Positions 7,033-60,533 are shown, counted from the stretch's first letter. The stretch is 64,000 nt of DNA from an uncultured Clostridiaceae bacterium (GCA_964653805.1 CAZZFS010000004.1:4182-68181); one strand, 5' to 3'. Translations and numbers: made by a program. The notes: generated by a model not told the origin, from the letters alone.

Positions 7033-7087
7033 TACATTCAATTGAAATTTTTATTTCTTAAATTGGAGGTGAAATGTATTTAAGTTT

Positions 7088-7255
7088 AAAAATAGCGCAT
7101 GAATATATATTATATATATAAATATGTATTGACGAGGATGATAGTTGTCGAAAAAATCAGCGGATTCTATCACGGTAATCTAGTATCGTAATATATAGTA
7201 CAAAGAGTGAAATTTATCTATCACTACAAAAAGCTATATAATCTAGTAAAAAAAA
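7088..7255 (+). ncRNA. glmS ribozyme: glmS ribozyme (GlcN6P-responsive self-cleaving riboswitch)
   Basis: AUAGCGC cleavage-site motif. The core UUGACGAGGAUG AUAG UUGUCGAAAAAAUCAGCGGAU UCUAUC ACGG closely matches the Bacillus glmS core, with GAUAG/CUAUC covarying against GGAGG/CCUCC. The downstream AAAGAGUGAAAU...UCACU element is present. It lies in the 5'UTR of glmS. Confidence 0.85.
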
Positions 7256-18565: not shown

Positions 18566-18919
18566 TGGTGGAGATGGTGAGAATTGAACTCACGTCCAGA
18601 AACCTATTCATACAAAATTCTCCGAGTGCAGTAAATGTTTAAATTTCATCCGTATACTCTAACATTCACAAAACTGTATATAGACTAAATTGAAAAATAC
18701 CCCCTAACGTACAATCATTGTTAGTTTCGTTGGCTAGATTTATTTGATGCCTTTTATTCCTCTCTAGCTAAAAAATAAAACACACACTACCTACTTAGGC
18801 AGCAAAAGCTAACTTATTGTTATCAGCGTTTAAATATTTTTCTCGTTTTTATAGTGGCCCACGAGAATCCACTACTCGCTATTTGTACTTCAAGATAACT
18901 GTCGATACCTTACATCCCC
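18566..18919 (-). ncRNA. ssrA: tmRNA (SsrA)
   Basis: Minus-strand 5' GGGGAUG pairs with a 3' CAUCUCC-ACCA acceptor, including a G3-U wobble. T-arm GUGAG-UUCAAUU-CUCAC. Length 354 nt. Internal tag ORF GCU GAU AAC AAU AAG UUA GCU UUU GCU GCC UAA gives ADNNKLAFAA. Confidence 0.85.
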
Positions 18920-23014: not shown

Positions 23015-23166
23015 TTATTACACCTCCTTAATATATAAAAAAAATTTTTGTAAGACACTACCTAAACGTTTATAGTGTCAAACAAAAATTAAATCTTTTT
23101 ATTTGAATATAAACCTCGGTAGGAATTATGGTTAATACCACCTACTGTCTTAAGTTTTATCTTTTT

Positions 23167-23850
23167 TTATTTTGATGATGGATTTATTTTTATTCCAGCA
23201 CCCATTGTTGTTGTTATTGCAACTGATCTTAAGTAAGTTCCTTTTGCAGCAGCAGGTTTAGCTTTTACTACAACTTCCATTAAAGCAGCGTAGTTTTGTT
23301 TTAACTTTTCTGCACCAAATGAAACTTTACCTATTGGGCAATGCATTATATTAGTTTTATCTAATCTATATTCAATTTTACCAGCTTTGATATCATTGAT
23401 TGCTTTTACAACATCAACAGTTACAGTTCCAGATTTAGGATTTGGCATAAGACCTTTAGGTCCTAATAATTTTGCAATTTTACCAAGAGATGCCATCATA
23501 TCTGGTGTAGCAATAATAGCGTCAAATTCAAACCAATTTTCTTTTTGAATTTTTTCTATCATGTCAACATCACCAACAAAATCAGCTCCAGCTTCTTGTG
23601 CTTGTTGAGCTTTTTCACCTTTAGCAAGTACTAAAACTTTTTTTGTTTTACCAGTTCCGTTTGGAAGAACTAACACACCTCTAACTTGTTGGTCTGCTTG
23701 TCTTGAATCTACACCTAATTTAATATGTAATTCAACTGTTTCATCAAATTTTGCTTTAGGCATTTTTAAAGCTATATCAATAGCTTCATTAATATCATAA
23801 AGTTTACCTGGTTCAACTAACTTTTCAGCTTCTATCATTCTTTTGCTCAT
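23167..23850 (-). CDS. rplA: 50S ribosomal protein L1
   Basis: Start corrected to [10 protein letters not shown] (ATG at 23850) with a GGGGGG RBS. The track's start at 23898 would abut rplK. Confidence 0.9.
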
Positions 23851-28749: not shown

Positions 28750-29172
28750 TTATATCTCTTTTTTTATTATTTCACTTAGTAACTCGATTAACCAGTCAGC
28801 ACCAAAAATTAATTTTAAATTCACCATATCTATTAAGTATTTTCTTCTAAAATTATCGTAATCTATTATAATTTCATAGTCTAAATTTTCCAATTTGTTT
28901 CCTTCGTGAACTAAATTGCAACGGAAATATTCATAAATAATTTCTTCAAGAGGAATAATTTTATTCTTCTCTTCTACTCTAATACTTTCCTCAAATTCAA
29001 AAGTCATTATAAATTTTTCGTGCAAATAATTTGTATATCTCTTTTTATTAGATTTTTCATTTGAAAAACGTTTTTTTGCCAAGCTATCTATGCAACATAG
29101 TAACAATAATAAGCAACTAGCTTTTCTATTATTTTTATATAAATACATCGAATCATTGTACATCCATTCCAT
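28750..29172 (-). CDS. hypothetical protein
   Basis: ORF only. Confidence 0.35.
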   Translation of the reverse strand: MEWMYNDSMYLYKNNRKASCLLLLLCCIDSLAKKRFSNEKSNKKRYTNYLHEKFIMTFEFEESIRVEEKNKIIPLEEIIYEYFRCNLVHEGNKLENLDYEIIIDYDNFRRKYLIDMVNLKLIFGADWLIELLSEIIKKEI

Positions 29173-29254: not shown

Positions 29255-29328
29255 TGGAGCGGGTTGTGGGAATCGGACCCACGCCAAAAGATCGGAAGCC
29301 TTTTATACTGCCACTATACTAAACCCGC
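29255..29328 (-). tRNA. tRNA-Gly (anticodon UCC), second distinct gene, with G37 and a G-U closing pair in the anticodon stem
   Basis: The reverse complement is GCGGGTTTAGTATAGTGGCAGTATAAAAGGCUUCCGAUCUUUUGGCGUGGGUCCGAUUCCCACAACCCGCUCCA. Its T-arm and acceptor 3' half are identical to the tRNA at 26684-26757. Confidence 0.6.
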
Positions 29329-29488: not shown

Positions 29489-30622
29489 TTAATTTTTTAA
29501 TAATCCATTATTTTTAATAACCGATAATATATTGATTTTTTTAACATCTTGCTGAACCTCACCAAAAAATGCCTCACATATCAAATGTGAATTATATTTT
29601 TTATTATGATTTTTTAGTTCTATTTTTTGAATACAATGATCATATATTCTAAACAATATATAACCTGGCTTATATGGAATTAAACCATTATCATTTTCTA
29701 TCAGATGCCCCTTTTCATCAAAAAGAAAATATCTGTGCAATCCTTTTTTAGGATAAAAATATTTTGCACCTTTCATTTCAAAAAAATTTATCGTTATCTT
29801 TTCATTTGAATCACGAACTTTTTCAACTTTAACAATATCTTGGCCTAATATTAATTCTTTAGATTCAACCGATTTATTACTATTTGATTCAAAAGACCAA
29901 TACTGAAAACGTAATCCTTGACATTTTGCTTTTAAAGCTAATACTTTGTCCGAAGTAATAACTACAGGATTGTATTTTTCTTTTAAGTCAAATGCTGTTT
30001 GCACTATAAATGAATCTGAATTTTCTTCTCTCCAACCAGCCAAACTTGTTTTTTTAGGTATTGGTATAACTAAACTTTCATCTTCAAGAGCTAGTCTAAG
30101 CAAATTCTTTGCATTATATCCACATGAATTCGGATTTTTTTGCTGCTTATCCAATTCCTCTATAACAATTGATGTAAATATGCAAATAACACCCTTGTTT
30201 TTTAATATTTCAACCACCTCATCAATACCTATTATTGATGTATCCAAAACAACATACTCACCTTTTTTTAAACCTTCACCAATTTTTTGATGATCATTTT
30301 TTACTTCTTCAGTAACAGCTATTGTTGTTTGTTCATCAATTGTTCTTTCTTCAACAATTTTTTCTATTACCACTTCTGCGTCATCAAGTTTAACATCTGG
30401 TTTAACTACACTTTTTTTAATGCTAGTTGAACTTTTTTGAACCTCATTTTGTTTAAACTTCCATCTTAAATCATTTACTTTTTCTTTATCAAAAGCTGAT
30501 TTTAAAGAATAATTAAACTGAGTAATATTCAAATTCAATTTTAACAAAACGTCTTTTTTCACCATACCTTTTTCAGCTAGTTCTAAAATTAACCGAGCAT
30601 CTTTTTTTGAATCTCTTCGCAT
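29489..30622 (-). CDS. PIN-domain containing protein (377 aa, PIN core flanked by N- and C-terminal extensions)
   Basis: VVLDTSIIG...FTSIVIEELDK acidic PIN signature in the central region. Confidence 0.5.
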   Translation of the reverse strand: MRRDSKKDARLILELAEKGMVKKDVLLKLNLNITQFNYSLKSAFDKEKVNDLRWKFKQNEVQKSSTSIKKSVVKPDVKLDDAEVVIEKIVEERTIDEQTTIAVTEEVKNDHQKIGEGLKKGEYVVLDTSIIGIDEVVEILKNKGVICIFTSIVIEELDKQQKNPNSCGYNAKNLLRLALEDESLVIPIPKKTSLAGWREENSDSFIVQTAFDLKEKYNPVVITSDKVLALKAKCQGLRFQYWSFESNSNKSVESKELILGQDIVKVEKVRDSNEKITINFFEMKGAKYFYPKKGLHRYFLFDEKGHLIENDNGLIPYKPGYILFRIYDHCIQKIELKNHNKKYNSHLICEAFFGEVQQDVKKINILSVIKNNGLLKN

Positions 30623-30841: not shown

Positions 30842-31417
30842 TTAGTTCCACCAACCTTCATCTTCTTCATCATCCTCGTCATCATCATCATCCAAAATAT
30901 TATCATACATAATTAACATCCAAATTCCATTTTGAAATGAATTATTTGAACTATATGCAGATATTGGCATTTGCGAACCATAAAATCCATTATAACCGCT
31001 ATAACCGCTATAATAACCACCTTTATTATTGAATGAATTATTATATTTTGATGTTTTAACAGGCTTCGACATTATTGTTGAAGTACTAGTAGTAACTGGT
31101 TTTGATATATTCTCTGTTCCTGAAGTAGTACTTGGTTTTGATGTTGTTGTAGTTGCTGGCTTTGAAACAGAATCAGATCCAGTTGTTGTAGTTGCTGGTT
31201 TGGATGTCGTTGTTGTAGTTGGCTTTGATGTTGTCGTCGTTGTTGACGGCTTTGATGTTGTCGTTGTTGTTGACGGCTTTGATGTTGTAACCGGTTTCGA
31301 TACTGTAACTGGCCTTGATACTGATACCTTAGCTGATACTGCATAAACATTACCACTACCCAAAAACATTAAACACATTAACACCACAAAAATTAAACTA
31401 AACCGTTTATTTTTCAT
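30842..31417 (-). CDS. secreted Thr/Ser-rich repeat protein with poly-acidic C-terminus
   Basis: Signal peptide (MKNKRFSLIFVVLMCLMFLGSGNVYA), SKP(S/A)TTTTT repeats, a DDDDEDDEEDEGWWN tail, and underlying ~27-bp DNA repeats. Confidence 0.6.
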   Translation of the reverse strand: MKNKRFSLIFVVLMCLMFLGSGNVYAVSAKVSVSRPVTVSKPVTTSKPSTTTTTSKPSTTTTTSKPTTTTTSKPATTTTGSDSVSKPATTTTSKPSTTSGTENISKPVTTSTSTIMSKPVKTSKYNNSFNNKGGYYSGYSGYNGFYGSQMPISAYSSNNSFQNGIWMLIMYDNILDDDDDEDDEEDEGWWN

Positions 31418-31621
31418 TTTTCCTCCTAAAATTTTATTTAGATTTTATATTTTTTGATTAGAATATTTTAACATGTTTTTATTTTTATGTCAAGTTTTTT
31501 AAATATATTAATCAAATTATTGACTACAAAGCATTATCATTGTATAATATCGATATAATTTGATGTATTTATTACTTGATTAATATTTAGTATGTAAAAA
31601 TTTAAAAGGAGGATTTTTAAA

Positions 31622-32917
31622 ATGTCTGATGTTAAAAATACAAATACTGAAGAAAGAAAACTTGACAAATGGGAAGAATCATATCTTTTCATAAAAGGTT
31701 ATGCCCTGGCTAAAAAAATGGAAAATACACTTATTGCTTTAAGTGTTGCAATTCAAAAACATGAAGGTCAATTTCGGAAAGGTGGAGAACCATATATAAT
31801 TCATCCACTCACAGTAGCAGCTTATTTGATCAATTTGGATATTGATGACGATATAATTTGCGCAGCTGCATTATTGCATGATGTTGTTGAGGATTGTAAT
31901 TTACCTAATAATGGTGAAGAATTCGTACAACTATATCACCTTGATCCAGAGGTTTTAGAAATTGTACTTTTGCTCACAAAAGAAAGTGGTTATGATGAAA
32001 GAGAGTATTATGAAAAAATTAAAGAAAATGAAAAAGCTTTGATAATAAAACTCTCTGACAGGGCGAATAATTTATCTACATTATCCGTTTTCAAATTCGA
32101 AAAAATGGAAAAATACGTAATCGAAACACAAAATTTTATTTTCCCACTTTGTAAACATGGAAAAGATTATTATCCTCATCTTTCAAATGCAATAACCATA
32201 ATCAAATATCAACTGGTTTCTGTGTGCGAAACAATTAAATCTCTGCTTAATATGAAAGATGTAGATGAAATTGATTTTTCTATTTACAGAAAAACTTTCT
32301 TATTCATACGTGGTTACGCAAAAGGTAAAAAAATGATTAACACCTTAATTGCTCTTGCTCTTGCAGAAATATATCACAAAGATCAACTTAGACAAACTGG
32401 CGATCCTTTTATAATTCATCCTTTAAGGGTATGTTCATATTTAATAAGTTTAGGTATTGATGATGATGCAACTTGTGCAGCAGCATTATTACATGAAATC
32501 TTAAAAAAATGTCATTTACCTAATAAAGGAATTGAAATCGTTGAGAAATATGGTATTTCTCAAGAAGTTTTGGAATTAATTCATTTAGTTTCAAAAGATC
32601 CTAAACTTTCAAAAGAAGTCTATTATGATAATTTAAAAACAAACTACAAAGCGCTACTTATTAAATTATCTAATAGAGCTCATACTTGTACAACTTTAGT
32701 TTCTTGTACTAAAGAAGAAAAAGAAGATTATTTAGATGAAAATCTAAACTTCATTTTTCAATTAGGAAGATATGCTAAATCATATTATCCTAAATATTCT
32801 GATGAAGTAATTAATATGGAATTTCATATTCAATCTGTAACAGAAATAATTAAATACTTCATAAAAATTCAAGAAACTGAAAAAGAAGATTTAAACAATA
32901 TTAACTTATCAGAATAA
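31622..32917 (+). CDS. tandem-duplicated HD-domain protein related to (p)ppGpp hydrolase (SpoT/SAH-like)
   Basis: Two homologous halves. Half 1 has IIHPLTVAAYL...LLHDVVED. Half 2 has IIHPLRVCSYL...LLHEILKK, with HD changed to HE and ED changed to KK. Confidence 0.65.
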   Translation: MSDVKNTNTEERKLDKWEESYLFIKGYALAKKMENTLIALSVAIQKHEGQFRKGGEPYIIHPLTVAAYLINLDIDDDIICAAALLHDVVEDCNLPNNGEEFVQLYHLDPEVLEIVLLLTKESGYDEREYYEKIKENEKALIIKLSDRANNLSTLSVFKFEKMEKYVIETQNFIFPLCKHGKDYYPHLSNAITIIKYQLVSVCETIKSLLNMKDVDEIDFSIYRKTFLFIRGYAKGKKMINTLIALALAEIYHKDQLRQTGDPFIIHPLRVCSYLISLGIDDDATCAAALLHEILKKCHLPNKGIEIVEKYGISQEVLELIHLVSKDPKLSKEVYYDNLKTNYKALLIKLSNRAHTCTTLVSCTKEEKEDYLDENLNFIFQLGRYAKSYYPKYSDEVINMEFHIQSVTEIIKYFIKIQETEKEDLNNINLSE

Positions 32918-33010
32918 AAAACTTAACCTAAAATAAAAAAACAACTCATGCGAGTTGTTTTTTTATTTATATATTTTTTTGAATTTTATCTATATTTAAT
33001 TCTTTAATAT

Positions 33011-33400
33011 TTATTTAACTTCTGCTTTCCATAAACCATGTTTGTTACAATACGCATATATTGTTGAATTTGGAATATATTTAAATCTTGTCGCTGTTTC
33101 TTGTTCTGGATATAACGTAACTCTTGAACTTTTGTTATCAGAAACTAAAGCTATCCACATTATATAATGATCTTTTTGCATTGGATGCTCTACTTCTCCA
33201 ACATGTACAACTATTTCATCTTCTACTTTTTCATAAACTGGAACATGTTTTTCAACTGCACCATCTGAAGTATTTGCTTTCATCAATTCCATATTTTTTC
33301 CACAACAAACAACTGGAACACCACTGTCTTTTATTAATCCAATTTGATTTCCACAAATAGGACAAATATAAAATTTAACGTTTTCTTTCATATTATTCAC
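33011..33400 (-). CDS. dfx: desulfoferrodoxin (superoxide reductase, 2Fe-SOR)
   Basis: N-terminal CPICG...CCG desulforedoxin-like site and an EKHVP neelaredoxin-type centre. Confidence 0.8.
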   Translation of the reverse strand: MNNMKENVKFYICPICGNQIGLIKDSGVPVVCCGKNMELMKANTSDGAVEKHVPVYEKVEDEIVVHVGEVEHPMQKDHYIMWIALVSDNKSSRVTLYPEQETATRFKYIPNSTIYAYCNKHGLWKAEVK

Positions 33401-33488
33401 TCACCTTTCATAATTAAAATTAATAATGTAATTTATATTATCAAGTATGTTATACATTATATCATACTTATAAGTACTTATCAATTTT

Positions 33489-33773
33489 TTATTTATTTTT
33501 AGAATTTTCTATTTTATTTATAAAAAGAAAAAATATTTCTTTAGTATTTAAACCCTTTTCTTTTAATATGTTATATTCTTTTACATTTTCTTTTCTATGA
33601 AAATATGTACAGTTTTCGCAAGCAAGTAATCCATTTTGTTTTAATATATATCCACCAAACAAATCATATTTTTCTTCTTCTTTACAAATTTCATAAAAAG
33701 GGCAATAACATAATGAACAATCAAAATTTTCTTTTTCTAAATCATGACATCTAAAATATTTACATTTATTCAA
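33489..33773 (-). CDS. small cysteine-rich protein (10 Cys in 94 aa)
   Basis: Lies 30 bp downstream of nrdJ on the same strand. Cys pattern CxxxxC...CxCxC...CxxC. Function unknown. Confidence 0.45.
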   Translation of the reverse strand: MNKCKYFRCHDLEKENFDCSLCYCPFYEICKEEEKYDLFGGYILKQNGLLACENCTYFHRKENVKEYNILKEKGLNTKEIFFLFINKIENSKNK

Positions 33774-33803
33774 TATTTCACCCTCTTTATATATTTTTTT
33801 AGT

Positions 33804-36320
33804 TTAGTTACATTTACTCCAACCACAACCTTTGATACAAACTACACATCCACCTTGTGAAACTAATTCTTCTCCACATTCTGGACATATTCTTTTCCCT
33901 AATTCTTTATTATCAATTATATTTAATTCTTTTAGTTCTTTAACTTTTAATGTTTCTGGTTTTATATCTACATTTATTGGTTGTTCATCTGTATTTAATT
34001 TAAATACTCTTTTGCTTTTTCTTAAAACCAATTCATCTCTTGCATATTCTTGTGCTAAAGCTTTACTAACTATATCTGGGCATGAAAGTCCATCTAATTT
34101 TCTTCCTCTTGCTATTTCACCTCTACAAGCTTGACATTGTATACCTTGTATTTGTTCTATTAAAACATCTACTTTAATACCAGCTCTTAAACCAGCAGAT
34201 AATATTCTTCCAATAGCATCTATATTTGATTTACAAATACCTGCTTTTGAAGTATTTATAAATATCTCAATTAAATTACCTTCTTGATCACGATTTACTG
34301 TTATCCATAAAGAACCACATGCTGTTTTATATTTATTAGTTGTTCCTAAAGTAGTACCAAAAGCTTCTCTTGGAACAGGATCTATATAATTAAATCTAAC
34401 TCCAACTGCACTATCACCTTTTATAACTTGTTCTGTTTTAACACTACCTTTTGGTGGTAATATAACAGTTTCTTTATTTTGTGGTATGATTTCTTCTTTA
34501 TTTTCTAATATTTCTTCTACTTTATTAACTTCTTTTTCTTTAACTTCTTCTTTTTTAGTAATTAAAATACCTTCTCTTAATTCATTAGGTCTAAATATAG
34601 TACAACCTTTTATTCCTGCTCTATGACAATAATCATAAATTTCTTTTGTATCTTCAAAACTATAATCTTCTGGAATATTTATTGTTTTACTAGCACTCAT
34701 ATTTACATATTTAGTAACAGCTTCTAATATTTTCAAATGAGCATCAACTGGTAATTCTAAAGCTGTAACAAAAACATCCTCTTCTACTACTTTATCTTTA
34801 GTATTTAACCATAACTCATAACCATAATCTCTCATAGTTACTATTTGTATATTAGAATCATCTTGTCCTCCAACTTTTATTTTTCTATCATATTCAATTG
34901 AAAATATTGGTTCTAAACCTGAAGAACAATTATTACCATATACTAAACTTATTGTTCCATTTGGTGCTATAGACATATGTCTTAAATTTCTTATACCATA
35001 TTCTAATATATCCTCTTTGATTTTTAACCATTCAGAATCATTAGCTATCATCTTATTCATAAACTCTGTATTTACATATTTTTGTTTATCTAAAAATTTC
35101 GCACTACCTTTTTCTTTTGCAATTTTAATAGATGCTCTATATACTGATTTTGTAACAAAATTCATAAAGTTTTCTGTGAATTTAACACAATCTGCTTCAC
35201 CATATTTTAAACCAAGCATTGTATACATTGTAGCAAGTCCCATTACACCAAGACCTATAACTCTCATGTTTTCTTGATATTTTTTAAATTTATCAACTGG
35301 GTAATAATTTATATCTATTATATTATCTAAAAATCTTGTTCCCCAATATGCAGCATCTGCAAGTTTTGCCCAATTTATTCTTGCTTCTTTAGTATATGGA
35401 TTTTCTACAAAATTAAATGCTACTAAACTTCCTAAATTACAAGCTCCCCAGTAATCATTGCTATTTTCTATATTATCACCATATAAAACACCAGATACAT
35501 ATTCACCACAAGGATTTGTACACATTATATTTTCCATATAATTTGTAGGATTTAATTTGTTTAAATTATCATAAAAAAGTATTCCTGGTTCTCCATTATT
35601 ATATGCTAACTTAATTATTTTATTCCATAAATCAAGAGCATTTATTTTTTTCTTTACATCCCATTTAGCTGGATCTTTTATTATTTCACCTTTTTCATTA
35701 TATACTGGGAAATGCAAATATATCTCTTCATTGTTATTTTTTGCCTTCATAAAATCATCATCTACCATAACTGATAAATTAAAATATTTAAGTTCATTAG
35801 CATCTTTTGATTTTGCATATATAAATTCAAGTATATCTGGGTGATATATATTTAACACACCCATATTAGCGCCTCTTCTACTACCTTGATTTACTGTTGC
35901 TGTTTGCATATCAAATACTCTTAAAAAACTTATAGGCCCCGAAGCAATAGCATCATTTTTTGTTGGTGTTCCTGCTGGTCTTAATTTACTTGCATCATAA
36001 CCAGAACCACCGCCACCTTTGTGAACTAATGCACCATATTTTACAGTATCAAATATTCCTTCCATATCATCAGGTATTGAATTTAATGTAAAACAATTAT
36101 TTAAAGTAAGTTTTGTTTTTCCAAGACCAATATTTGAAATTATTCTACCACCCGGAAAAAATAATCCTTGATCAATCACTCTATAAAAATCATTATATTC
36201 TTGTTCTCTATTTAAAGATGCACCTTTGGCTATTCTATGCATTTGTTCATCATATGTTTCATCATTTTTGCAATATCTGTCTTTCCAGATTTGCTCACTT
36301 ATTAAATTTGTAAATTTCAT
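33804..36320 (-). CDS. nrdJ: adenosylcobalamin-dependent ribonucleotide reductase (class II, NrdJ) with C-terminal Cys-rich zinc ribbon
   Basis: NPCGE active-site motif of class I/II RNRs, a monomeric ~840-aa protein, C-terminal CPECGEEL...CVVCIKGCGWSKC. The start MKFTN at 36320 is supported by a GGAGG RBS. Confidence 0.8.
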   Translation of the reverse strand: MKFTNLISEQIWKDRYCKNDETYDEQMHRIAKGASLNREQEYNDFYRVIDQGLFFPGGRIISNIGLGKTKLTLNNCFTLNSIPDDMEGIFDTVKYGALVHKGGGGSGYDASKLRPAGTPTKNDAIASGPISFLRVFDMQTATVNQGSRRGANMGVLNIYHPDILEFIYAKSKDANELKYFNLSVMVDDDFMKAKNNNEEIYLHFPVYNEKGEIIKDPAKWDVKKKINALDLWNKIIKLAYNNGEPGILFYDNLNKLNPTNYMENIMCTNPCGEYVSGVLYGDNIENSNDYWGACNLGSLVAFNFVENPYTKEARINWAKLADAAYWGTRFLDNIIDINYYPVDKFKKYQENMRVIGLGVMGLATMYTMLGLKYGEADCVKFTENFMNFVTKSVYRASIKIAKEKGSAKFLDKQKYVNTEFMNKMIANDSEWLKIKEDILEYGIRNLRHMSIAPNGTISLVYGNNCSSGLEPIFSIEYDRKIKVGGQDDSNIQIVTMRDYGYELWLNTKDKVVEEDVFVTALELPVDAHLKILEAVTKYVNMSASKTINIPEDYSFEDTKEIYDYCHRAGIKGCTIFRPNELREGILITKKEEVKEKEVNKVEEILENKEEIIPQNKETVILPPKGSVKTEQVIKGDSAVGVRFNYIDPVPREAFGTTLGTTNKYKTACGSLWITVNRDQEGNLIEIFINTSKAGICKSNIDAIGRILSAGLRAGIKVDVLIEQIQGIQCQACRGEIARGRKLDGLSCPDIVSKALAQEYARDELVLRKSKRVFKLNTDEQPINVDIKPETLKVKELKELNIIDNKELGKRICPECGEELVSQGGCVVCIKGCGWSKCN

Positions 36321-36458
36321 TTTTATTACCTCCACTAATACATTTTGTTTTTTATTTTTTCTATATTTTTACTATTATTATTTAAATCTTTTGTACTTAA
36401 TTTAAAAACAACTTTAATGTGATTTTTTTATGTTTCTTAATACATTCTAAAAAGCACT

Positions 36459-40609: not shown

Positions 40610-42193
40610 TTATATAATTTCTTTTTCAGAATCTGGAACTTCTAATTTATGAAGTATTTCATCAATAAAAGATAAACTTTCTTTTGGTTTTTCTAAGAAA
40701 TAACCTTGAACATAATTAACACCTAATTTTCTTACCATATTCAATGTATTTATATCCTCAATACCAACAACAATAACATGACTATTTCTTGATAAGCTAT
40801 ATGTTATTAACTCAGATAAAAAGTTTTGTTTATTTTCATCTTCAACTATATTTTGAATAAGTGAAATATCTGGCACTATATAATCAACATTTAACATAGC
40901 TATATCATCTATTGTAAGTGTCCCTATACCAAAATTATCTAAAGCTACAAAACCATTATTTTTATGAATATTATCAATTACTTCTTTCATAATTGACATA
41001 TCCTTTTTCTCATAATTATGAAATTCTATAACAATTTTATTTTTTGCCATCATATCATATATTCTTGGTTTATTTATATAATTGTTATAACTTACAAAAT
41101 CAGAATTTACAAATAAAGTTCTAGATGTTTTTGTTTTATTTTTTTCAAAAGCTTCTATACTATTTACAAGTAAAATTTGTTGAACTTTATCGTATTTATC
41201 CATAGTTTTAGCATAATTTAAGAAATCAACTATACTTATTTTTTTTGTTGTTTCAAGTCTTGTAAATACTTCATGTCCAAAAATTTCTTTTTTTTCTAAA
41301 TCAATAATTGGTTGATATACAATATTAATTTTATTTCTACTTACAACAGAACTTATTAAATTATCTAATTCAGATTTTGATAATGTTCCAGAATTATTAT
41401 CACTATCTTCACTTTCACTATTTTCATTATATGCAAAATATGAATTAATAAATTCTAAATATTTATTTTTTGTTACTTTATACTTATTATATACTTCTAA
41501 ACTTTTTGCTCTTGCATCTGAATCTTTAACATCAATAAGTAAATAAAATAATTCTTTACTATTATTTAATTCATTTACTAAAAATCTCATATTATCATAT
41601 GTTATTTCACCTTCATTTAAAAATTTATCATGATATTTAATAAGAGTTAAAATTATTTTCATCTCATCAGCTGAAAATTCAAATCTTTTTAAAATTTCTT
41701 CTGCTAATTCAACTGATTTATCATCATGCCCCGCAAAACTTTCAGAACCATCTGAAGATATAACTTTAACATATGGTTTACCTATATCATGTAATAACAT
41801 AGTCCATTTTAAAATTTTCTTTTCCCAATCTCCAATTGGTATTTGAGGATTACCTACTGCTTCTACAGTAGCTAAAATATGTTTAAAAACACCAAATTTA
41901 TGATACGAAGAACTTTGTTGACAATTAATAACATTTTCATCATAACTATTTTTTACATAAAACTCAGGAAAATGAGCTTCAAAAATAGGATCTTGACTAA
42001 TTCTTGTAATTATAAAAGCAACATTTTCATCTTCTAACATATTAGTATATATTTCTTTTAATTCATCCGGATTATTTCTATACAATTTTAATTTTGTAAT
42101 AATATTTTTTATTCTAGCCGTTTCTTTAATATCCATTAAGTCCATTTCGATATTATCAGCATCAATCTCAAAAACTTCATCTATTTCTTTCAT
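40610..42193 (-). CDS. HD-domain plus EAL-domain protein (putative c-di-GMP-related; EAL motifs partly degenerate)
   Basis: N-terminal HD (H..HD at LLHDIGKP). C-terminal EAL fold with YQPIIDL, EVF in place of EAL, and ALDNFGIG in place of DDFGTG. Confidence 0.6.
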   Translation of the reverse strand: MKEIDEVFEIDADNIEMDLMDIKETARIKNIITKLKLYRNNPDELKEIYTNMLEDENVAFIITRISQDPIFEAHFPEFYVKNSYDENVINCQQSSSYHKFGVFKHILATVEAVGNPQIPIGDWEKKILKWTMLLHDIGKPYVKVISSDGSESFAGHDDKSVELAEEILKRFEFSADEMKIILTLIKYHDKFLNEGEITYDNMRFLVNELNNSKELFYLLIDVKDSDARAKSLEVYNKYKVTKNKYLEFINSYFAYNENSESEDSDNNSGTLSKSELDNLISSVVSRNKINIVYQPIIDLEKKEIFGHEVFTRLETTKKISIVDFLNYAKTMDKYDKVQQILLVNSIEAFEKNKTKTSRTLFVNSDFVSYNNYINKPRIYDMMAKNKIVIEFHNYEKKDMSIMKEVIDNIHKNNGFVALDNFGIGTLTIDDIAMLNVDYIVPDISLIQNIVEDENKQNFLSELITYSLSRNSHVIVVGIEDINTLNMVRKLGVNYVQGYFLEKPKESLSFIDEILHKLEVPDSEKEII

Positions 42194-54322: not shown

Positions 54323-56209
54323 TTAATTTTCAGGTTCATTATTTTCATTGTTTATTTTTTGCTCTTTGTTTTCATCTTTATTAATAACTTCACCTACATC
54401 ATCAACTTCAACTCCTGTTTTAGATTCTACAGTGATTTGATTTTCTTCTTTTTCTGAAGATTTAGGTATTTTAATAAAGAACGTTGTTCCATTTCCAAGT
54501 GAACTATCAAAACTAATATCACCTTTAAAAGAACCTACTATAACAGAATATACTAAATAAAGACCTAAACCAGTACCTTTAATACCTTTTGTTGTAAGTA
54601 TATTTTTAAATACAAAAGGTGATATTTTAACATCTATTCCGCCAGCAAAATCAATTACTTTAACTAATGCATTTTTACCATCTGAATCTTCTTCAACACT
54701 AATTATAATTTTACCACCATTATCTTCACCATAAGCTTGAGCTGCATTTACTACTAAATTTGTAAATACTTGTCCAAGTTTAGTAGGATCACCTTTTATA
54801 CTAACATCATCTTTAATATCGATGACAACATCAGATCTGTTTTTTGATATTTCATTATATGTTATTATTTTTATATCTTTTAAAACACTACTGATTTTAA
54901 AATCTACATCAGTATCTCCACCAAGATTTCTTATTTGGTTTCTCATACTATTTACAATAGTAATTATTTTATTAGCACAATTATCCATTCTAAATATAAT
55001 TTCTTTTTCTTGATCAGTTCTCTCACTTGTCATTGAACTTAACATTACAATACCAGTTTTTATAGCTGCTATTGGTGTATTTATATCATGTGCTACACCA
55101 CCAGCAAGTTCTCCTATAGAAACTAATTGACCTTGTTTTACAATTATATTTTGTTTTTCTTCAAGTTCAACCATATCTAATTTATGCTGTGTAATATCTT
55201 TAAAAAGTAATAATGTACCTATGTACTCATTACCTGTATTAGATTTTATTGGTTGAATATCCACTTCAAAATATTTATCCTTATCCTTTACTTTTAAAGT
55301 ATATTCTAATATAATTTTTTCATTTTTTTCTATTGACAAAGAAATTGCATTTTTTAATTTATCAAAAGTATCTTTATTATGTTCTTTTAAAAACAAAAAT
55401 AAATTTTCCACCTTATTATTTTCTAATAATTCATTAAAATTTTCTTTAAAAGATCTATTCATATCAACAATTGAACCATCAGTAGATACAACAACAAAAG
55501 AATCCGACATTGTATTTGTAATTGTTTTCAAAGCAACTGGTGTTATATTTAAAATTTTATATTTTATTATTGCTATTGCATAAAAAATTAAAGTAATAAC
55601 AAATAACATAGGTGTCACGTATATTGATATATTAATAATTCTCAAAGTTCCCATTATATTAACAATTAAAGGTATCAAACTACCAATTACAATTAAAGCT
55701 GTTTGAATAGAAAAAAAACCTGATTTTTTTATAGACGCTTTTATCATTATTATTATAAATAGTACCATTAAAATATAAGAATAACCACTATTAACATAAA
55801 ACATAGGACCATATATTGCTTCACTAAAATTTACAGAATAGTGTTTATAAAATAAATTATGATAATCATTTGTCCATAATATAATCAATGATAATATAGG
55901 TATTATACTTAAACAAAATATTTTTAAATTATTTATTTTTGCACCCCAATATTTAATAGACATTATTAAAGCTATTGGTGGTGTAAAACAAATACCTATA
56001 TAAGTAATATAGTCAAAATATATAGGATTTCCTGTTGAATTTAATTTAATAAATATAGATTGTCCTAATAAACCTAAACACCAAACTGTCAACATAAAAA
56101 ACATAACCGACATTATATTTGACACATTTAATTTTTCGAATTTTAATTTTATCATTCCTATTAATGATAAACATATTATAATACAAAAAATTAATAATAT
56201 TTCAATCAT
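54323..56209 (-). CDS. membrane sensor histidine kinase (N-terminal ~7TM domain, PAS-like linker, HisKA, HATPase_c)
   Basis: H-box LAGGVAHDINTP. N, G1 and G2 boxes (NLVVNAAQA, DFAGGI, GTGLGLYLV). Multiple N-terminal TM helices. GGAGG RBS lies 28 bp after the NRPS stop. Confidence 0.8.
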   Translation of the reverse strand: MIEILLIFCIIICLSLIGMIKLKFEKLNVSNIMSVMFFMLTVWCLGLLGQSIFIKLNSTGNPIYFDYITYIGICFTPPIALIMSIKYWGAKINNLKIFCLSIIPILSLIILWTNDYHNLFYKHYSVNFSEAIYGPMFYVNSGYSYILMVLFIIIMIKASIKKSGFFSIQTALIVIGSLIPLIVNIMGTLRIINISIYVTPMLFVITLIFYAIAIIKYKILNITPVALKTITNTMSDSFVVVSTDGSIVDMNRSFKENFNELLENNKVENLFLFLKEHNKDTFDKLKNAISLSIEKNEKIILEYTLKVKDKDKYFEVDIQPIKSNTGNEYIGTLLLFKDITQHKLDMVELEEKQNIIVKQGQLVSIGELAGGVAHDINTPIAAIKTGIVMLSSMTSERTDQEKEIIFRMDNCANKIITIVNSMRNQIRNLGGDTDVDFKISSVLKDIKIITYNEISKNRSDVVIDIKDDVSIKGDPTKLGQVFTNLVVNAAQAYGEDNGGKIIISVEEDSDGKNALVKVIDFAGGIDVKISPFVFKNILTTKGIKGTGLGLYLVYSVIVGSFKGDISFDSSLGNGTTFFIKIPKSSEKEENQITVESKTGVEVDDVGEVINKDENKEQKINNENNEPEN

Positions 56210-56237: not shown

Positions 56238-59200
56238 TTAATTATTATTTAAAAACTTAACAGCTTTCAAATATTCAATATATTTTTTTATATAATTTTC
56301 ATCTATTTTCTTCCACTCAAAACCAATTTCGTTTAAATATTTTATTGTATTATATGAAGTTATTTCTATATTTGTTGAATAATCTAATAAATTATTTTCA
56401 TTTATATCATTTATTATACCAATTATTTTTTTTGTTGAATTTTCATCTTCAAGAATTTTTTTTATATAATTTGAAAACTCTATATCTTCTATAACACTTA
56501 TTTTTATTCCTATTTTTTTCAAAATTTTTAAAAATTCACTTACATTTACATGATTATGATTATATACATGAAAAGTATTATGATTCATATTAAAGTATTG
56601 CATAACTTTAACTATAAATTCACTAGCTAAATCAACAGGTGTAAATTCCAAATACATATTATAACAATTTTTTGGAATATAACCTATATCTACTATAGAT
56701 TTTAACCTTCCTGTAAAAGCATTTTCTTCTATATTATCCTGAAATTTCAAATCACTATATCTTCCTGTAAGATTACCACATCTTATTATGTTTGCCTTAA
56801 GTCCTTTATTAATATATTCTAATACACATTCTTCAGCTTTAAATTTTGTATATATATATACATTATCAACATTTTGATTTTTAAAAAAACATGTTTCATC
56901 AAATATATTTTTTTGATTTTCATTAGATTTTTGTTTAACATAGGCTGCTTCAAAAGCGTTTCCGGAAACACTTATAGTAGAAATATGTATCATTTTTTTA
57001 TTTTTATTATAGCAATATTCGGCTACATTTTCAGTACCTTTAACATTTATATCAAAGAAAAATTCTTTACTACCATAATGTTTAACACAAGCAGCAGAAT
57101 GAACTACAAATTCTATTTTTTTTGATATTTCTGGATATCTATCCATTCCTAAATTTTTTTCAATTATATCTCCATCTAAAGCAAAAATTCTTTTATCTAA
57201 TAATTCATCATATTTATCACCAAAATAATAATTTAATTTAAGTTTTAGTCTTTCTTTAGAAGTTAAATTGTTTTTGCTTCTTACCAAACAATAAACATTT
57301 ACTTTTTCTTTTTCTAAAATTTCACTAACAACATGAGAACCTAAAAATCCAGTTACTCCTGTAACTAAAATATCACTTAACGGTTTATATTCAGGTTTGA
57401 TATTAAAATTTTTGTTAGAATTTAATATATTAGAAAAATCTTTATTGTAATTTGATATATCAAATTCTTTTATTTTAATACTCTCTTCTATTTTTTTTGA
57501 TATTTCCCTTATGGTATAAAATTTAAATATATCCGAATATTCTATATTTATTTCTTTTTTCAAAAGTTCTATTCTTAATTTTATCGCATCAAGAGAATCT
57601 CCTAATTCAAAAAAATTTGTATCAATACCAAATTTTTTATCTTTAAATATAAATTTCCAAGAATCAAAAATTTCTTTTTGTATATTTGTTGTAGGCATAC
57701 TTAATTCTTGATTTATTAAATTTAATTTATATTCTAATATTTTTTTTCTGTCTATTTTTCCATTTGCTGTTAAAGGAAATTTATCTAATTTTATAAAAAC
57801 ACTTGGTATCATATATAAAGGTAATTTTTTTTGTATAACCCCTCTAAAATATTCATTTTCATATTCTTTGTTTTTATCAATATAATAACATATAATTTTT
57901 TGATCTTTAAATACAACTACTGCATCTTCTACTCTAATAAATTTAACAATATTTTTTTCTATTTCTTCTAATTCTATCCTTTGACCATTTAACTTTATTT
58001 GAAAATCAGTTCTACCCAATATTTTTAATTCTTGTTCAAAATCAATTAAAGCTAAATCACCTGTTAAATATATTTTATCTTTTATAAATTTATTATTTAT
58101 AAATTTTTCTTCTGTTAATTTAACATTATTATAATATCCCTTTGATACTGATTCACCAGATATAGCTAATTGTCCTTCTATTTGATAAGGTAATAAACGA
58201 TTTTTATTATCTAATATATATAATTTTGTGTTTTGTATTGGTTTGCCAGCTGTTATTTCATTTGTTTTTGTTATATCTTTAATTGTTGACCAAATAGTGG
58301 TTTCAGTTGGACCATATACATTTATTATACTAGAATTAGTTATTTTTTTTAATTTCTTTATATAATCTTCTGGTAAAGTTTCTCCACCTAATAAAACTTT
58401 TTTCATATTTTTTATATATTCCAAATTATTATTATCAGATGTTAATAATCTTAATTTTGTAGGAGTTGTTTGAATTATATCAACGTTATTTTTTATACAT
58501 AAACTATTCAATAAAGATGAATCAAGTTGTTCTTTTTCATTTGATAAAACTAATTTTGCCCCATTTAAAAATGTAAGCCAAATTTCCAATCCAAATATAT
58601 CAAATGAAATCGTAGTTATCGAAACTACATTTTCTTCTTTTGATATTTTTATATTTTCATTTATACCAAATAAAAAATTAATTAAATTATAATTATTTAT
58701 CATAACTCCTTTTGGGTTTCCTGTTGAACCAGAAGTATAAATTAAATATACTAAATTATCAGATAAAATTTCTAAATCCAAATTAAAATTAGATGTATTA
58801 TCATTTAAATTATTTACATTAATAGCATTATCTGAAATAAAATCACAAGATTTACTAGTAACAACATATTTAGCATTACTATTTTCTAATATATATTTAA
58901 CTCTCTCTTCAGGATATTCTGGATCAATAGGTATATATGTTCCACCACATTTTAAAATAGCCAATAAAGCTGAAATTAAAACTTCATTTCTATTCATATA
59001 TACTGCTATTATATCACCAATTTCCACACCTTTTTCTTCTCTTAAATAATGTGCTAATTGATTTGCTTTTTCATTTAATTCTCTATATGTCATTTTTTTA
59101 TCTTCAAACACTAAAGCAATATTATCTGGTGTTTTTTCAACTTGTTCTTCAAATAATTGTATAACAGTTTTATCTTTTGGATAATCTCTATCTGTATCAT

Positions 59201-60533
59201 TAAATTCATATAATATTTTATGTTCTTCTTCAACACTCATTATGCGAATATCTTCTACAGTAACCTCTTCATTGCTAAGAGCATCTTCTATTATTGCAAT
59301 AAGTCTAGTATGTAAATATTTTATTTCAATTTTATCAAATACATCAATTAAATAATCATAATATATTTCTAATTTACCTTCATTATTTATATCAACTATA
59401 TGTATATCTAAATCATCTTGAATACAATTCGGTTCTTTCCATATAGCATTATATTTTTTATTATCAGAATAATTTGCTCTTGCATTTTGATACGACAAAA
59501 CAATATTATACAAATTAGCTTTTATATCTGTCTTAGAATGAACTTCTTTTATAATTTCACTATATGGATATTTTTGATGCCTAAAAATAGACATTGTATC
59601 GCAAGAAACAGCTTTTAATAAATCTCTAAATTTAATATTTTCTTCAATTTTAAATCTCATTGGTATCGTAGAAATAAACATACCAAGCATTTGTTTTTCT
59701 TTAAAATTTGATCTATTTAAAACTGGTGTTCCTATAATAAAATCATTTATATCTTTTATTCTATATATATAAGTTGAAAGTGCTGTTAAAAACAATACAT
59801 ATGGTGAAACTTTATTGTTTTTACAATACATGTTAATTTTTTCATTTAGTTCTTTATCTAATTTAACAATATATCTTTTAGATTCTTTATTTATTTTTTT
59901 TGAAACGTTTTTTAAAGCTACTGGTTCATTTATATCTTTCAAATATTCATTCCAAAATTCTTCATCTTTTTTATATTTATCTGATTCCATATATTGTTTT
60001 TCAGAGTTTATATATTCTATATAACTTGGCACTTCTAAATCATTTTCAATATTATTGTATAGTTTTTCATATATTTTAGAATATTGTGTAGCAACTTGAA
60101 TAAGTCCCCAAGCATCTGATATTATATGATGAAACTTATAATAAATACATGTTTTCATATTAGGTAATTTAATTATTTTAAATTCATATAATTTTTCTCC
60201 TAATATATTTATTGGTTTTAACATTTCATTTTTTATATATGTATTAAAATCTTTTTCACTTAATAAAGACATATCCAAAACTTCTATATTTTGTTTTTTA
60301 AATTCTCTAATATATTGTAAAGGTTCTTCACCTTTTTTTATTATATTTAATCTAAGAGCTTCATTATTTTTAATTAATTCATTTAATACTTCATTATGAA
60401 TATCATATTTAAATTCATCATTTTTAATATAAAATACTCCTGCTATATTGTTTATATTGCTACCATCATTTACCAATTCAACCATCCAAATATTTTTTTG
60501 CGGATTTGTTAATTCATAATATTCTTTCTTCAT
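56238..60533 (-). CDS. single-module nonribosomal peptide synthetase, C-A-T-R (terminal thioester reductase)
   Basis: C domain with HHIISDAWG (HHxxxDG). A-domain cores LIYTSGSTGNPKGV (A3), NVYGPTE (A5), YLTGDLA (A7), GRTDFQIKLNGQRIELEEIE (A8), LPLTANGKIDRK (A10). Carrier motif FFELGDSLDAI. R domain with TGVTGFLGSHV NAD(P)-binding motif and YTKFK (YxxxK). Confidence 0.85.
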   Translation of the reverse strand: MKKEYYELTNPQKNIWMVELVNDGSNINNIAGVFYIKNDEFKYDIHNEVLNELIKNNEALRLNIIKKGEEPLQYIREFKKQNIEVLDMSLLSEKDFNTYIKNEMLKPINILGEKLYEFKIIKLPNMKTCIYYKFHHIISDAWGLIQVATQYSKIYEKLYNNIENDLEVPSYIEYINSEKQYMESDKYKKDEEFWNEYLKDINEPVALKNVSKKINKESKRYIVKLDKELNEKINMYCKNNKVSPYVLFLTALSTYIYRIKDINDFIIGTPVLNRSNFKEKQMLGMFISTIPMRFKIEENIKFRDLLKAVSCDTMSIFRHQKYPYSEIIKEVHSKTDIKANLYNIVLSYQNARANYSDNKKYNAIWKEPNCIQDDLDIHIVDINNEGKLEIYYDYLIDVFDKIEIKYLHTRLIAIIEDALSNEEVTVEDIRIMSVEEEHKILYEFNDTDRDYPKDKTVIQLFEEQVEKTPDNIALVFEDKKMTYRELNEKANQLAHYLREEKGVEIGDIIAVYMNRNEVLISALLAILKCGGTYIPIDPEYPEERVKYILENSNAKYVVTSKSCDFISDNAINVNNLNDNTSNFNLDLEILSDNLVYLIYTSGSTGNPKGVMINNYNLINFLFGINENIKISKEENVVSITTISFDIFGLEIWLTFLNGAKLVLSNEKEQLDSSLLNSLCIKNNVDIIQTTPTKLRLLTSDNNNLEYIKNMKKVLLGGETLPEDYIKKLKKITNSSIINVYGPTETTIWSTIKDITKTNEITAGKPIQNTKLYILDNKNRLLPYQIEGQLAISGESVSKGYYNNVKLTEEKFINNKFIKDKIYLTGDLALIDFEQELKILGRTDFQIKLNGQRIELEEIEKNIVKFIRVEDAVVVFKDQKIICYYIDKNKEYENEYFRGVIQKKLPLYMIPSVFIKLDKFPLTANGKIDRKKILEYKLNLINQELSMPTTNIQKEIFDSWKFIFKDKKFGIDTNFFELGDSLDAIKLRIELLKKEINIEYSDIFKFYTIREISKKIEESIKIKEFDISNYNKDFSNILNSNKNFNIKPEYKPLSDILVTGVTGFLGSHVVSEILEKEKVNVYCLVRSKNNLTSKERLKLKLNYYFGDKYDELLDKRIFALDGDIIEKNLGMDRYPEISKKIEFVVHSAACVKHYGSKEFFFDINVKGTENVAEYCYNKNKKMIHISTISVSGNAFEAAYVKQKSNENQKNIFDETCFFKNQNVDNVYIYTKFKAEECVLEYINKGLKANIIRCGNLTGRYSDLKFQDNIEENAFTGRLKSIVDIGYIPKNCYNMYLEFTPVDLASEFIVKVMQYFNMNHNTFHVYNHNHVNVSEFLKILKKIGIKISVIEDIEFSNYIKKILEDENSTKKIIGIINDINENNLLDYSTNIEITSYNTIKYLNEIGFEWKKIDENYIKKYIEYLKAVKFLNNN

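Follow-up and report, generated by a model that had tools for sequence, protein, structure and literature searches.

A tandem RelA/SpoT-type hydrolase protein of a Clostridiaceae bacterium with one canonical and one conserved, remodelled active site

Why should a bacterium keep, in one polypeptide chain, two copies of a domain of hydrolase type, the second of which has lost residues associated with catalysis? This question is raised by a gene located at positions 31622-32917 (plus strand, stop codon included) of a 64,000-nucleotide stretch of DNA from an uncultured Clostridiaceae bacterium (GCA_964653805.1, CAZZFS010000004.1:4182-68181), the whole of which was analysed and is referred to here as the window. 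The gene encodes a protein of 431 amino acids, identical to the product called on an independent public Logan contig, where its neighbours are also the same. An earlier note, made from the sequence alone, had described this product as a tandem-duplicated, small-alarmone-hydrolase-like HD protein with a catalytically degenerate second copy. The open reading frame (ORF) and the motifs quoted there (IIHPL twice, LLHDVVED in the first half and LLHEILKK in the second) are present as described. On balance, we think that the protein is probably a single-chain, asymmetric small alarmone hydrolase (SAH), in which one active site is combined with a constrained, non-catalytic and probably nucleotide-binding pocket.

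The relationship between the two halves is unambiguous. Residues 17-213 and 222-418 align over 197 amino acids without a single gap, with 46% identity and 69% similarity (E = 4e-62), which is far above chance and confirms the duplication, for which an identity of about 40-45% had been estimated by eye. No repeat between the halves remains at the DNA level; the duplication is therefore ancient, and a recent duplication or an assembly artefact can be ruled out.

The fold family is equally clear. Pfam HD_4 (PF13328) matches the protein with 82 bits against a cut-off of 27.2 in two stretches, one per half, both halves match the N-terminal hydrolase part of TIGR00691 (spoT_relA, E = 2e-45), and the matches in PDB, by sequence as well as by fold, are exclusively hydrolases from the superfamily of RelA/SpoT homologues (RSH). 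The best-matching solved structures, for the whole protein and for half 2 alone, are SpoT/Rel hydrolase domains (7qps, 7oiw, 6s2t, 1vj7), with E-values of 6e-17 to 1e-13 for the full protein and 4e-10 for half 2 alone. Characterised SAHs (7p1y, 7smg, 4yf1, Mesh1) score lower; the closest of them is ActSpo2 (7p1y, E = 2e-14, about 29% identity), and the (p)ppApp hydrolase 7smg and Mesh1 are matched with E-values of 4e-8 and about 5e-7, respectively. ActSpo2 and Mesh1 belong, with MixSpo, PbcSpo, PbcSpo2, PaSpo and others, to the SAH subfamilies that have been named (Jimmy 2020). All specific matches in Pfam, NCBIfam and PDB are of the RelA/SpoT type, with no dGTPase or other HD-subfamily model among them, so the fold that had been proposed is borne out and an identity as a dGTPase, which had been considered as well, is not. 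The protein is thus a member of the RSH superfamily, as indicated by the HD_4 match and by the all-helical HD fold of Rel, SpoT and SAH structures.

Within this superfamily, SAHs are the class whose only domain type is the hydrolase, without SYNTH, TGS or ACT (Atkinson 2011, PMC3153485). In Pfam and NCBIfam we found only HD_4 and HD matches, with no SYNTH, TGS or ACT domain, and neither database holds a model specific for the tandem family. By its domain content the protein would therefore be placed among SAHs, although this class is described as single-domain and two HD domains are present here. The term small-alarmone-hydrolase-like is accordingly apt for the domain content but less so for the sequence, each half being nearer to the hydrolase domains of long RSHs.

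The two halves differ in the state of their active sites, which we read according to the HD1-HD6 scheme of Bisiak et al. (PMC9293644). A competent RSH hydrolase possesses Arg in HD1, His in HD2, His-Asp in HD3, Glu-Asp in HD4, Asp followed by Arg or Lys in HD5, and Asn in HD6. Of these, the HD2 His, the HD3 His-Asp and the HD5 Asp bind Mn2+, the HD1 Arg and the HD6 Asn hold the base, and nucleophilic attack requires the HD4 pair in all RSH hydrolases that have been characterised (PMC9293644). Domain 1 (amino acids 17-213; 31670-32260, plus strand, as all features of the gene given below) carries the complete set, namely R52, H61, H86-D87, E90-D91, D146-R147 and N150. The stretch H86-D87-V-V-E90-D91, with Mn2+ ligands of HD3 and the catalytic Glu-Asp pair of HD4, is encoded at 31877-31894, and D146-R147-A-N-N150 (HD5/HD6) at 32057-32071. 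T153, corresponding to RelSeq T151, is present too, and the spacing between the motifs agrees with RelSeq numbering. Judged by its residues, domain 1 has everything expected of a competent RSH hydrolase site, and the suspicion that the first half might also lack essential residues can be put aside.

A different state is seen in domain 2 (amino acids 222-418; 32285-32875), the paralogous domain that we denote HD*, which is separated from domain 1 by a short linker (amino acids 214-221; 32261-32284). HD1 (R257) and HD2 (H266) are kept, HD3 reads H291-E292, HD4 K295-K296, HD5 N351-R352 and HD6 T355. The remodelled HD3/HD4 stretch, H291-E292-I-L-K295-K296, lies at 32492-32509 and the HD5/HD6 stretch, N351-R352-A-H-T355, at 32672-32686, SDRANN of half 1 having become SNRAHT. 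In the base loop, Y58 of half 1 is matched by F263 in half 2. The base-stacking Arg with its loop and the two metal-binding His residues are thus retained in half 2, and the catalytic Glu-Asp pair and two of the four Mn2+ ligands (Asp to Glu and Asp to Asn) are lost. With only R257, H266, H291 and R352 left of the canonical set, domain 2 does not appear to be a competent hydrolase site by the measure applied to domain 1. The HE and KK changes had been pointed out before; the HD5 change of Asp to Asn, the HD6 change of Asn to Thr and the change of Tyr to Phe had been overlooked.

Are these changes signs of decay? We counted motif residues over 121 sequences, comprising the query and 120 homologues of 49-94% identity. 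In half 1, H47, R52, H61, H86, D87, E90, D146, R147 and N150 occur in all 121 sequences and D91 in 120. The altered residues of half 2 are just as constant, E292 and N351 being found in 121/121 and K295 and T355 in 120/121 sequences, and each of R257, H266, H291, E292, K295, N351, R352 and T355 is conserved in at least 119. The base-binding loop of domain 2 (R257, G260, D261, P262, F263) is conserved as well. Position 296 is variable: 60 of the 121 sequences have His, 34 Lys and 12 Arg, and the other 15 have further residues such as Q, F and N.

The two halves were further compared on a non-redundant set of 57 sequences. Half 1 has a mean pairwise identity of 0.583 and 52 columns conserved to at least 90%; in half 2 the values are 0.563 and 51. 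Twenty-seven positions are conserved in both halves. The same residue is fixed in 21 of them, and the remaining six are fixed differently (Y58 to F, D87 to E, E90 to K, D146 to N, N150 to T, S152 to T), all of them within active-site motifs. Because the substitutions are fixed and the two halves are equally well conserved, the site of half 2 is best understood as a catalytic centre that was remodelled in a co-ordinated way and under selection, and not as a product of relaxed constraint or decay. Describing the second copy as catalytically degenerate is correct insofar as the Glu-Asp pair and half of the Mn2+ ligands are gone, but it misses the invariance of what has taken their place.

An internal contrast is provided by about ten family members of roughly 550-570 amino acids, which carry a third, partial HD repeat at their N-terminus (E = 4e-12 to half 1). 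Hardly any of the motif residues within its span survive in this repeat (signature Y-M-Y-Q-D-E-E), which lacks the HD5/HD6 region and displays how an unconstrained remnant looks. The resulting layout of remnant HD, active-type HD and HD* is found in P0120 (L012:4014-5675), P0105, P0107, P0108, P0112, P0113 and P0115.

The distribution of the variant domain was examined next. In 1.84 billion representatives, scanned exhaustively with HMMER, there were 18,289 matches at E <= 1e-3, only 59 of them at E <= 1e-30, and the motif strings of HD domains were read in the best 150 of the 18,289. Among these, the signature H-R-H-HE-K-x-NR-T was confined to truncated fragments and to tandem proteins, in the latter as the C-terminal domain (P0005, P0113, P0124, P0125, P0127, with more divergent versions in P0160 and P0132). 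Four short matches, P0128, P0154, P0218 and P0253, had been candidates for stand-alone HD* proteins and proved to be such fragments. About 120 of the best 150 matches are single-domain relatives of 200-250 amino acids, almost all of them fully canonical; the nearest non-tandem relatives, canonical single-domain proteins of about 200-250 amino acids, are 35-53% identical to domain 1. A contig scan with the single protein as query gave, among the matches listed, only distant ones from Lachnospiraceae, Hydrogenothermaceae and Campylobacter.

In a neighbour-joining tree of the domains, built without bootstrap, all variant domains form one clade and the N-terminal domains cluster with single-domain SAHs, which points to one ancient origin of HD*. 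Other tandem HD-HD proteins (P0126, P0135, P0136, P0205, P0260) apparently stem from separate duplications. The two domains of P0126, of P0260 and of P0136/P0205 are sister to one another in the same tree, suggesting that these duplications were independent. The non-canonical copy of P0126 and of P0135 is the N-terminal one, and it again has Lys at the position of the HD4 Glu. Recurrence of this replacement in apparently independent tandem lineages suggests convergence.

The whole chain was also modelled with AlphaFold2, using an alignment of 66 sequences. The model consists of two all-helical domains with a mean pLDDT of 89.8 and a pTM of 0.89. Values of pLDDT below 50 are confined to the nine N-terminal residues; the linker and the C-terminal tail are less confident than the domains, the ten-residue blocks spanning amino acids 201-220 having mean pLDDT of 87 and 67. 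A pTM of 0.89 in a chain of two domains means that their arrangement is predicted with confidence, and the model thus suggests that they are packed against each other in a fixed, intramolecular manner. An architecture with two hydrolase domains was not found among the solved or viral structures searched, and phage relatives in BFVD and PHROGs are all single-domain.

How might such a protein work? Homology predicts that domain 1 is a RelA/SpoT-type, Mn2+-dependent 3'-pyrophosphohydrolase with (pp)pGpp, and perhaps also (p)ppApp, as substrate. Domain 2 is an ancient paralogue whose catalytic centre was rewritten in concert and then frozen, Lys and a mostly basic residue having replaced the nucleophile-activating Glu-Asp pair and Thr the base-holding Asn. 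With the acidic pair lost and metal ligands altered, one of them being neutralised, domain 2 should be incapable of hydrolysis by the canonical mechanism. A polyphosphate nucleotide would be bound more readily thanks to the retained Arg and its loop and to the added positive charge, and we infer that the ligand is phosphate-rich, most simply the alarmone or its product. Domain 2 would pack on domain 1 in the place taken by the partner subunit in the SAH homodimer; such packing would stabilise domain 1, and occupancy of domain 2 by the ligand would tune its activity. A close parallel, by analogy, to the HD4 Lys of domain 2 is artificial, the Lys of MESH1 D66K at the second HD4 position; this mutant was crystallised with its ligand (PDB 9chy, MESH1 (D66K)-PAPS complex), and a MESH1-NADPH complex has been solved as well (5vxa). 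The regulatory or nucleotide-sensing role that had been put forward for the second domain fits the conservation pattern. A more specific version of this proposal, which is possible but which we hold only tentatively, is that HD* constitutes a previously unrecognised receptor of alarmones or nucleotides, with a non-hydrolysing and possibly metal-free pocket in which Lys serves for phosphate and which acts as an allosteric switch of the fused hydrolase.

The gene itself looks like an expressed, stand-alone unit. A Shine-Dalgarno sequence, AGGAGG, is located at 31607-31612, 9 nt upstream of the ATG, and a putative sigma-70-type promoter (TTGACT-17 nt-TATAAT, 11/12 consensus match) at 31520-31548. 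As 12 promoter-type sites were observed in the region and 14 are expected from shuffles, this promoter, a consensus match favoured by its position and quality, is suggestive, not proof. Downstream, a terminator-like 17-bp hairpin with a T-rich tail (32931-32968) is shared with the convergent desulfoferrodoxin gene. An Rfam scan upstream of the gene detected no riboswitch or leader, and a link to a ppGpp or PRPP riboswitch was therefore dropped.

The window represents the core chromosome of a low-GC (about 25%) Firmicute, with tmRNA, the glmS ribozyme, the L10 leader, tRNAs, recA, scpA, murE, an aminoacyl-tRNA synthetase and a polC-like gene as core markers. Its RecA is 100% identical to a protein on an NCBI contig, and the closest relatives that bear a name come from MAGs labelled Clostridia bacterium, which places the source within the Clostridia. 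The tmRNA gene is at 18566-18919 and the ribosomal L10 leader at 23074-23172, both on the minus strand; the glmS ribozyme (7083-7249, plus strand) precedes a 600-amino-acid ORF and is an ordinary chromosomal element.

The window and a 63%-identical relative share neighbouring genes for desulfoferrodoxin, a small Cys-rich protein and a class II ribonucleotide reductase. This conserved block downstream of the hydrolase gene, at 33011-36335 (minus strand) in the window and at L010:1669-4962 in the relative, comprises desulfoferrodoxin, the Cys-rich zf-like protein (PF04071) and a class II-type reductase with TSCPD, which is one ORF of 843 amino acids in the window and was called as two (130 and 702 amino acids) in the relative. 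Another relative of the gene adjoins a HAD phosphatase and tyrS; the neighbours in others are polC, a hibernation-factor gene in convergent orientation and an ABC transporter, and relatives are also located among sporulation genes. The tandem hydrolase gene of one sub-lineage is convergent with a short Ribosomal_S30AE gene (hibernation-promoting factor type) beside polC (L012:5750-6106, L014:5661-6017, L015:1913-2269); hibernation factors are linked to the stringent response, and this neighbourhood may be coincidence. No alarmone synthetase was found as a neighbour in five different contexts. The gene is thus a chromosomal, monocistronic orphan. PADLOC gave no match to a defence system. Together with the core-chromosome window and the single-domain phage relatives, this rules out a phage or defence origin; a known defence system, or an SAH acting as antitoxin in a toxSAS pair, was likewise rejected, given the empty PADLOC result, the monocistronic gene and the lack of a neighbouring synthetase.

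Several other genes in the window deserve mention. The divergent upstream neighbour (30842-31417, minus strand) encodes 191 amino acids with a signal-peptide-like N-terminus, Thr/Ser/Pro repeats of the TTTTSKP type and an extremely acidic C-terminal tail, DDDDDEDDEEDEGWWN, and has no Pfam match. Beyond it, at 29489-30622 (minus strand), a 377-amino-acid protein with a central PIN_4 nuclease domain is encoded just upstream of a tRNA gene (29258-29328, minus strand), and an adjoining ORF of 140 amino acids (28750-29172) has no Pfam match. Beside recA, a 527-amino-acid protein (40610-42193, minus strand) combines a generic HD domain (amino acids 122-193) with EAL (amino acids 284-503); this unusual pairing may represent another nucleotide second-messenger phosphodiesterase. 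A single-module non-ribosomal peptide synthetase of 1431 amino acids with condensation, adenylation and terminal NAD-binding reductase domains (56238-60533, minus strand) is adjoined by a 7TM-PAS histidine kinase gene (54323-56209).

Some of these observations weigh against an asymmetric SAH with a nucleotide-binding second pocket. The neighbourhood of the gene is not conserved and hence offers no functional hint, and in a neighbour-joining tree without bootstrap support long-branch effects are possible. Domain 1 could have a substrate that is not an alarmone; Mesh1 also acts on NADPH according to PMC9765508. Finally, His, His, Glu and Asn are all metal-competent, and metal binding and catalysis of some kind might thus persist in domain 2. 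The last point can be developed into a bifunctional protein in which domain 2, neo-functionalised, uses its His/His/Glu/Asn metal site and the nearby Lys for another reaction or substrate. The HD superfamily is chemically versatile, the four positions equivalent to metal ligands are invariant, and conservation of domain 2 equals that of the enzyme domain. We nevertheless consider a second enzyme very unlikely: Lys and a mostly basic residue stand where the Glu-Asp pair is needed for nucleophilic attack, the second HD4 position varies (mostly H, K, R) in a way unusual for a catalytic residue, and the motif set of half 2 is matched by no RSH hydrolase in the papers or PDB entries searched.

Conversely, domain 2 could be purely structural, a dead subunit fused in place of the second SAH protomer, which binds no ligand and regulates nothing. 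SAHs are obligate homodimers that associate via their N-terminal helices and are destabilised when the interface is disrupted (PMC9293644), the high pTM hints at tight packing, at least in the model, and several independent tandem duplications fit a general benefit of linking the dimer covalently. A scaffold, however, would not need an invariant pocket, and here eight pocket residues are nearly universal and the differently fixed sites are all active-site positions; the third repeat (YMYQDEE, without HD5/HD6) shows what a merely structural remnant looks like. For these reasons we regard a scaffold as unlikely. Partly orthogonal to both alternatives is a non-alarmone role in vivo, with domain 1 acting on NADPH, PAPS or another 3'-phosphorylated nucleotide or cofactor, or conferring immunity to (p)ppApp-producing toxins. 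The reported hydrolysis of NADPH by Mesh1 and an orphan bacterial SAH called metabolically promiscuous (both PMC9765508), the solved MESH1 complexes with NADPH (5vxa) and PAPS (9chy), the presence of the (p)ppApp hydrolase 7smg among the matches and the orphan status of the gene, which has no synthetase as neighbour, all speak in its favour. It seems distinctly improbable to us because Rel/SpoT (p)ppGpp hydrolases are the best matches, ahead of Mesh1 and the (p)ppApp hydrolase, and because domain 1 has conserved each of the residues that contact guanine (HD1 Arg, HD6 Asn and T153).

The regulation of SAHs has been acknowledged as unclear (PMC9293644), and a frozen rewritten site, its occurrence in tandem proteins only and the recurrent change of Glu to Lys offer a concrete handle on this question. 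The family can be regarded as a natural experiment, a covalent heterodimer that combines a canonical site with one that was rewritten and has since been held fixed by selection. Binding of an alarmone or its product at the second site would mean a new allosteric logic for the turnover of (p)ppGpp in Clostridia, as well as a new pseudoenzyme module that binds nucleotides. Were HD* indeed a receptor, (pp)pGpp clearance in Clostridia might, for example, be substrate-activated and ultrasensitive, and the recurrent HD4 change would mark a general route from SAH homodimer to sensor-enzyme heterodimer. Domain 2 may also be a ready-made substrate-trapping domain for structural work, a similar Lys substitution being artificial in MESH1 co-crystals. 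Should domain 2 be only a scaffold, the protein would add modestly to the RSH architectures on record, and another RSH pseudo-domain would not astonish specialists.

Among known systems, SAHs and long RSHs come closest to the protein. With SAHs (T. denticola Tde-SAH, ActSpo2, 7p1y; RelH MixSpo of C. glutamicum and L. levettii, 7qod and 7qoe; P. aeruginosa, 6yvc; Mesh1, 3nr1) it has in common the all-helical HD fold, the absence of synthetase, TGS and ACT domains and, in domain 1, the full HD1-HD6 set, at an identity of only about 16-29% in Foldseek alignments. Long RSHs (Rel and SpoT; 7qps, 7qpr, 7oiw, 6s2t, 1vj7) are the closest sequence matches to both halves. They have an extra N-terminal helix which SAHs lack (PMC9293644), and since the alignment starts at about SpoT residue 13, this helix is apparently included. 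They differ from the tandem protein in their SYNTH and C-terminal regulatory domains, in place of which it has a second hydrolase-like domain.

As to retained inactive domains, the earlier note had seen in the protein the hydrolase/pseudo-synthetase logic of RelA. This inverts the facts, RelA being a pseudo-hydrolase with an active synthetase; an active hydrolase with a pseudo-synthetase is the SpoT of Moraxellaceae, and in both proteins the inactive domain is described as regulatory (PMC9974481). The likeness, a catalytic and an inactivated domain in one chain, is one of analogy, not membership. RelA and SpoT pair hydrolase and synthetase domains of different folds, whereas here an internal duplication gave rise to both domains, which share the hydrolase fold, and, unlike theirs, the pseudo-site has been rewritten to a fixed alternative motif set.

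We found no description of a tandem-HD SAH in RSH classification papers (PMC3153485, PMC7229694 and the preprint of the latter), in the paper on SAH structures (PMC9293644), in that on the SAH of T. denticola (PMC10434055) or by full-text searches, which cover the literature incompletely, and the family may be listed in some source without comment. Characterised SAHs are single-domain homodimers with two equivalent sites (PMC9293644); the tandem protein has two domains per chain and one fixed non-canonical site. With a pair of hydrolase domains in one chain, one of them bearing a frozen rewritten site, the protein departs from the definition of the SAH class.

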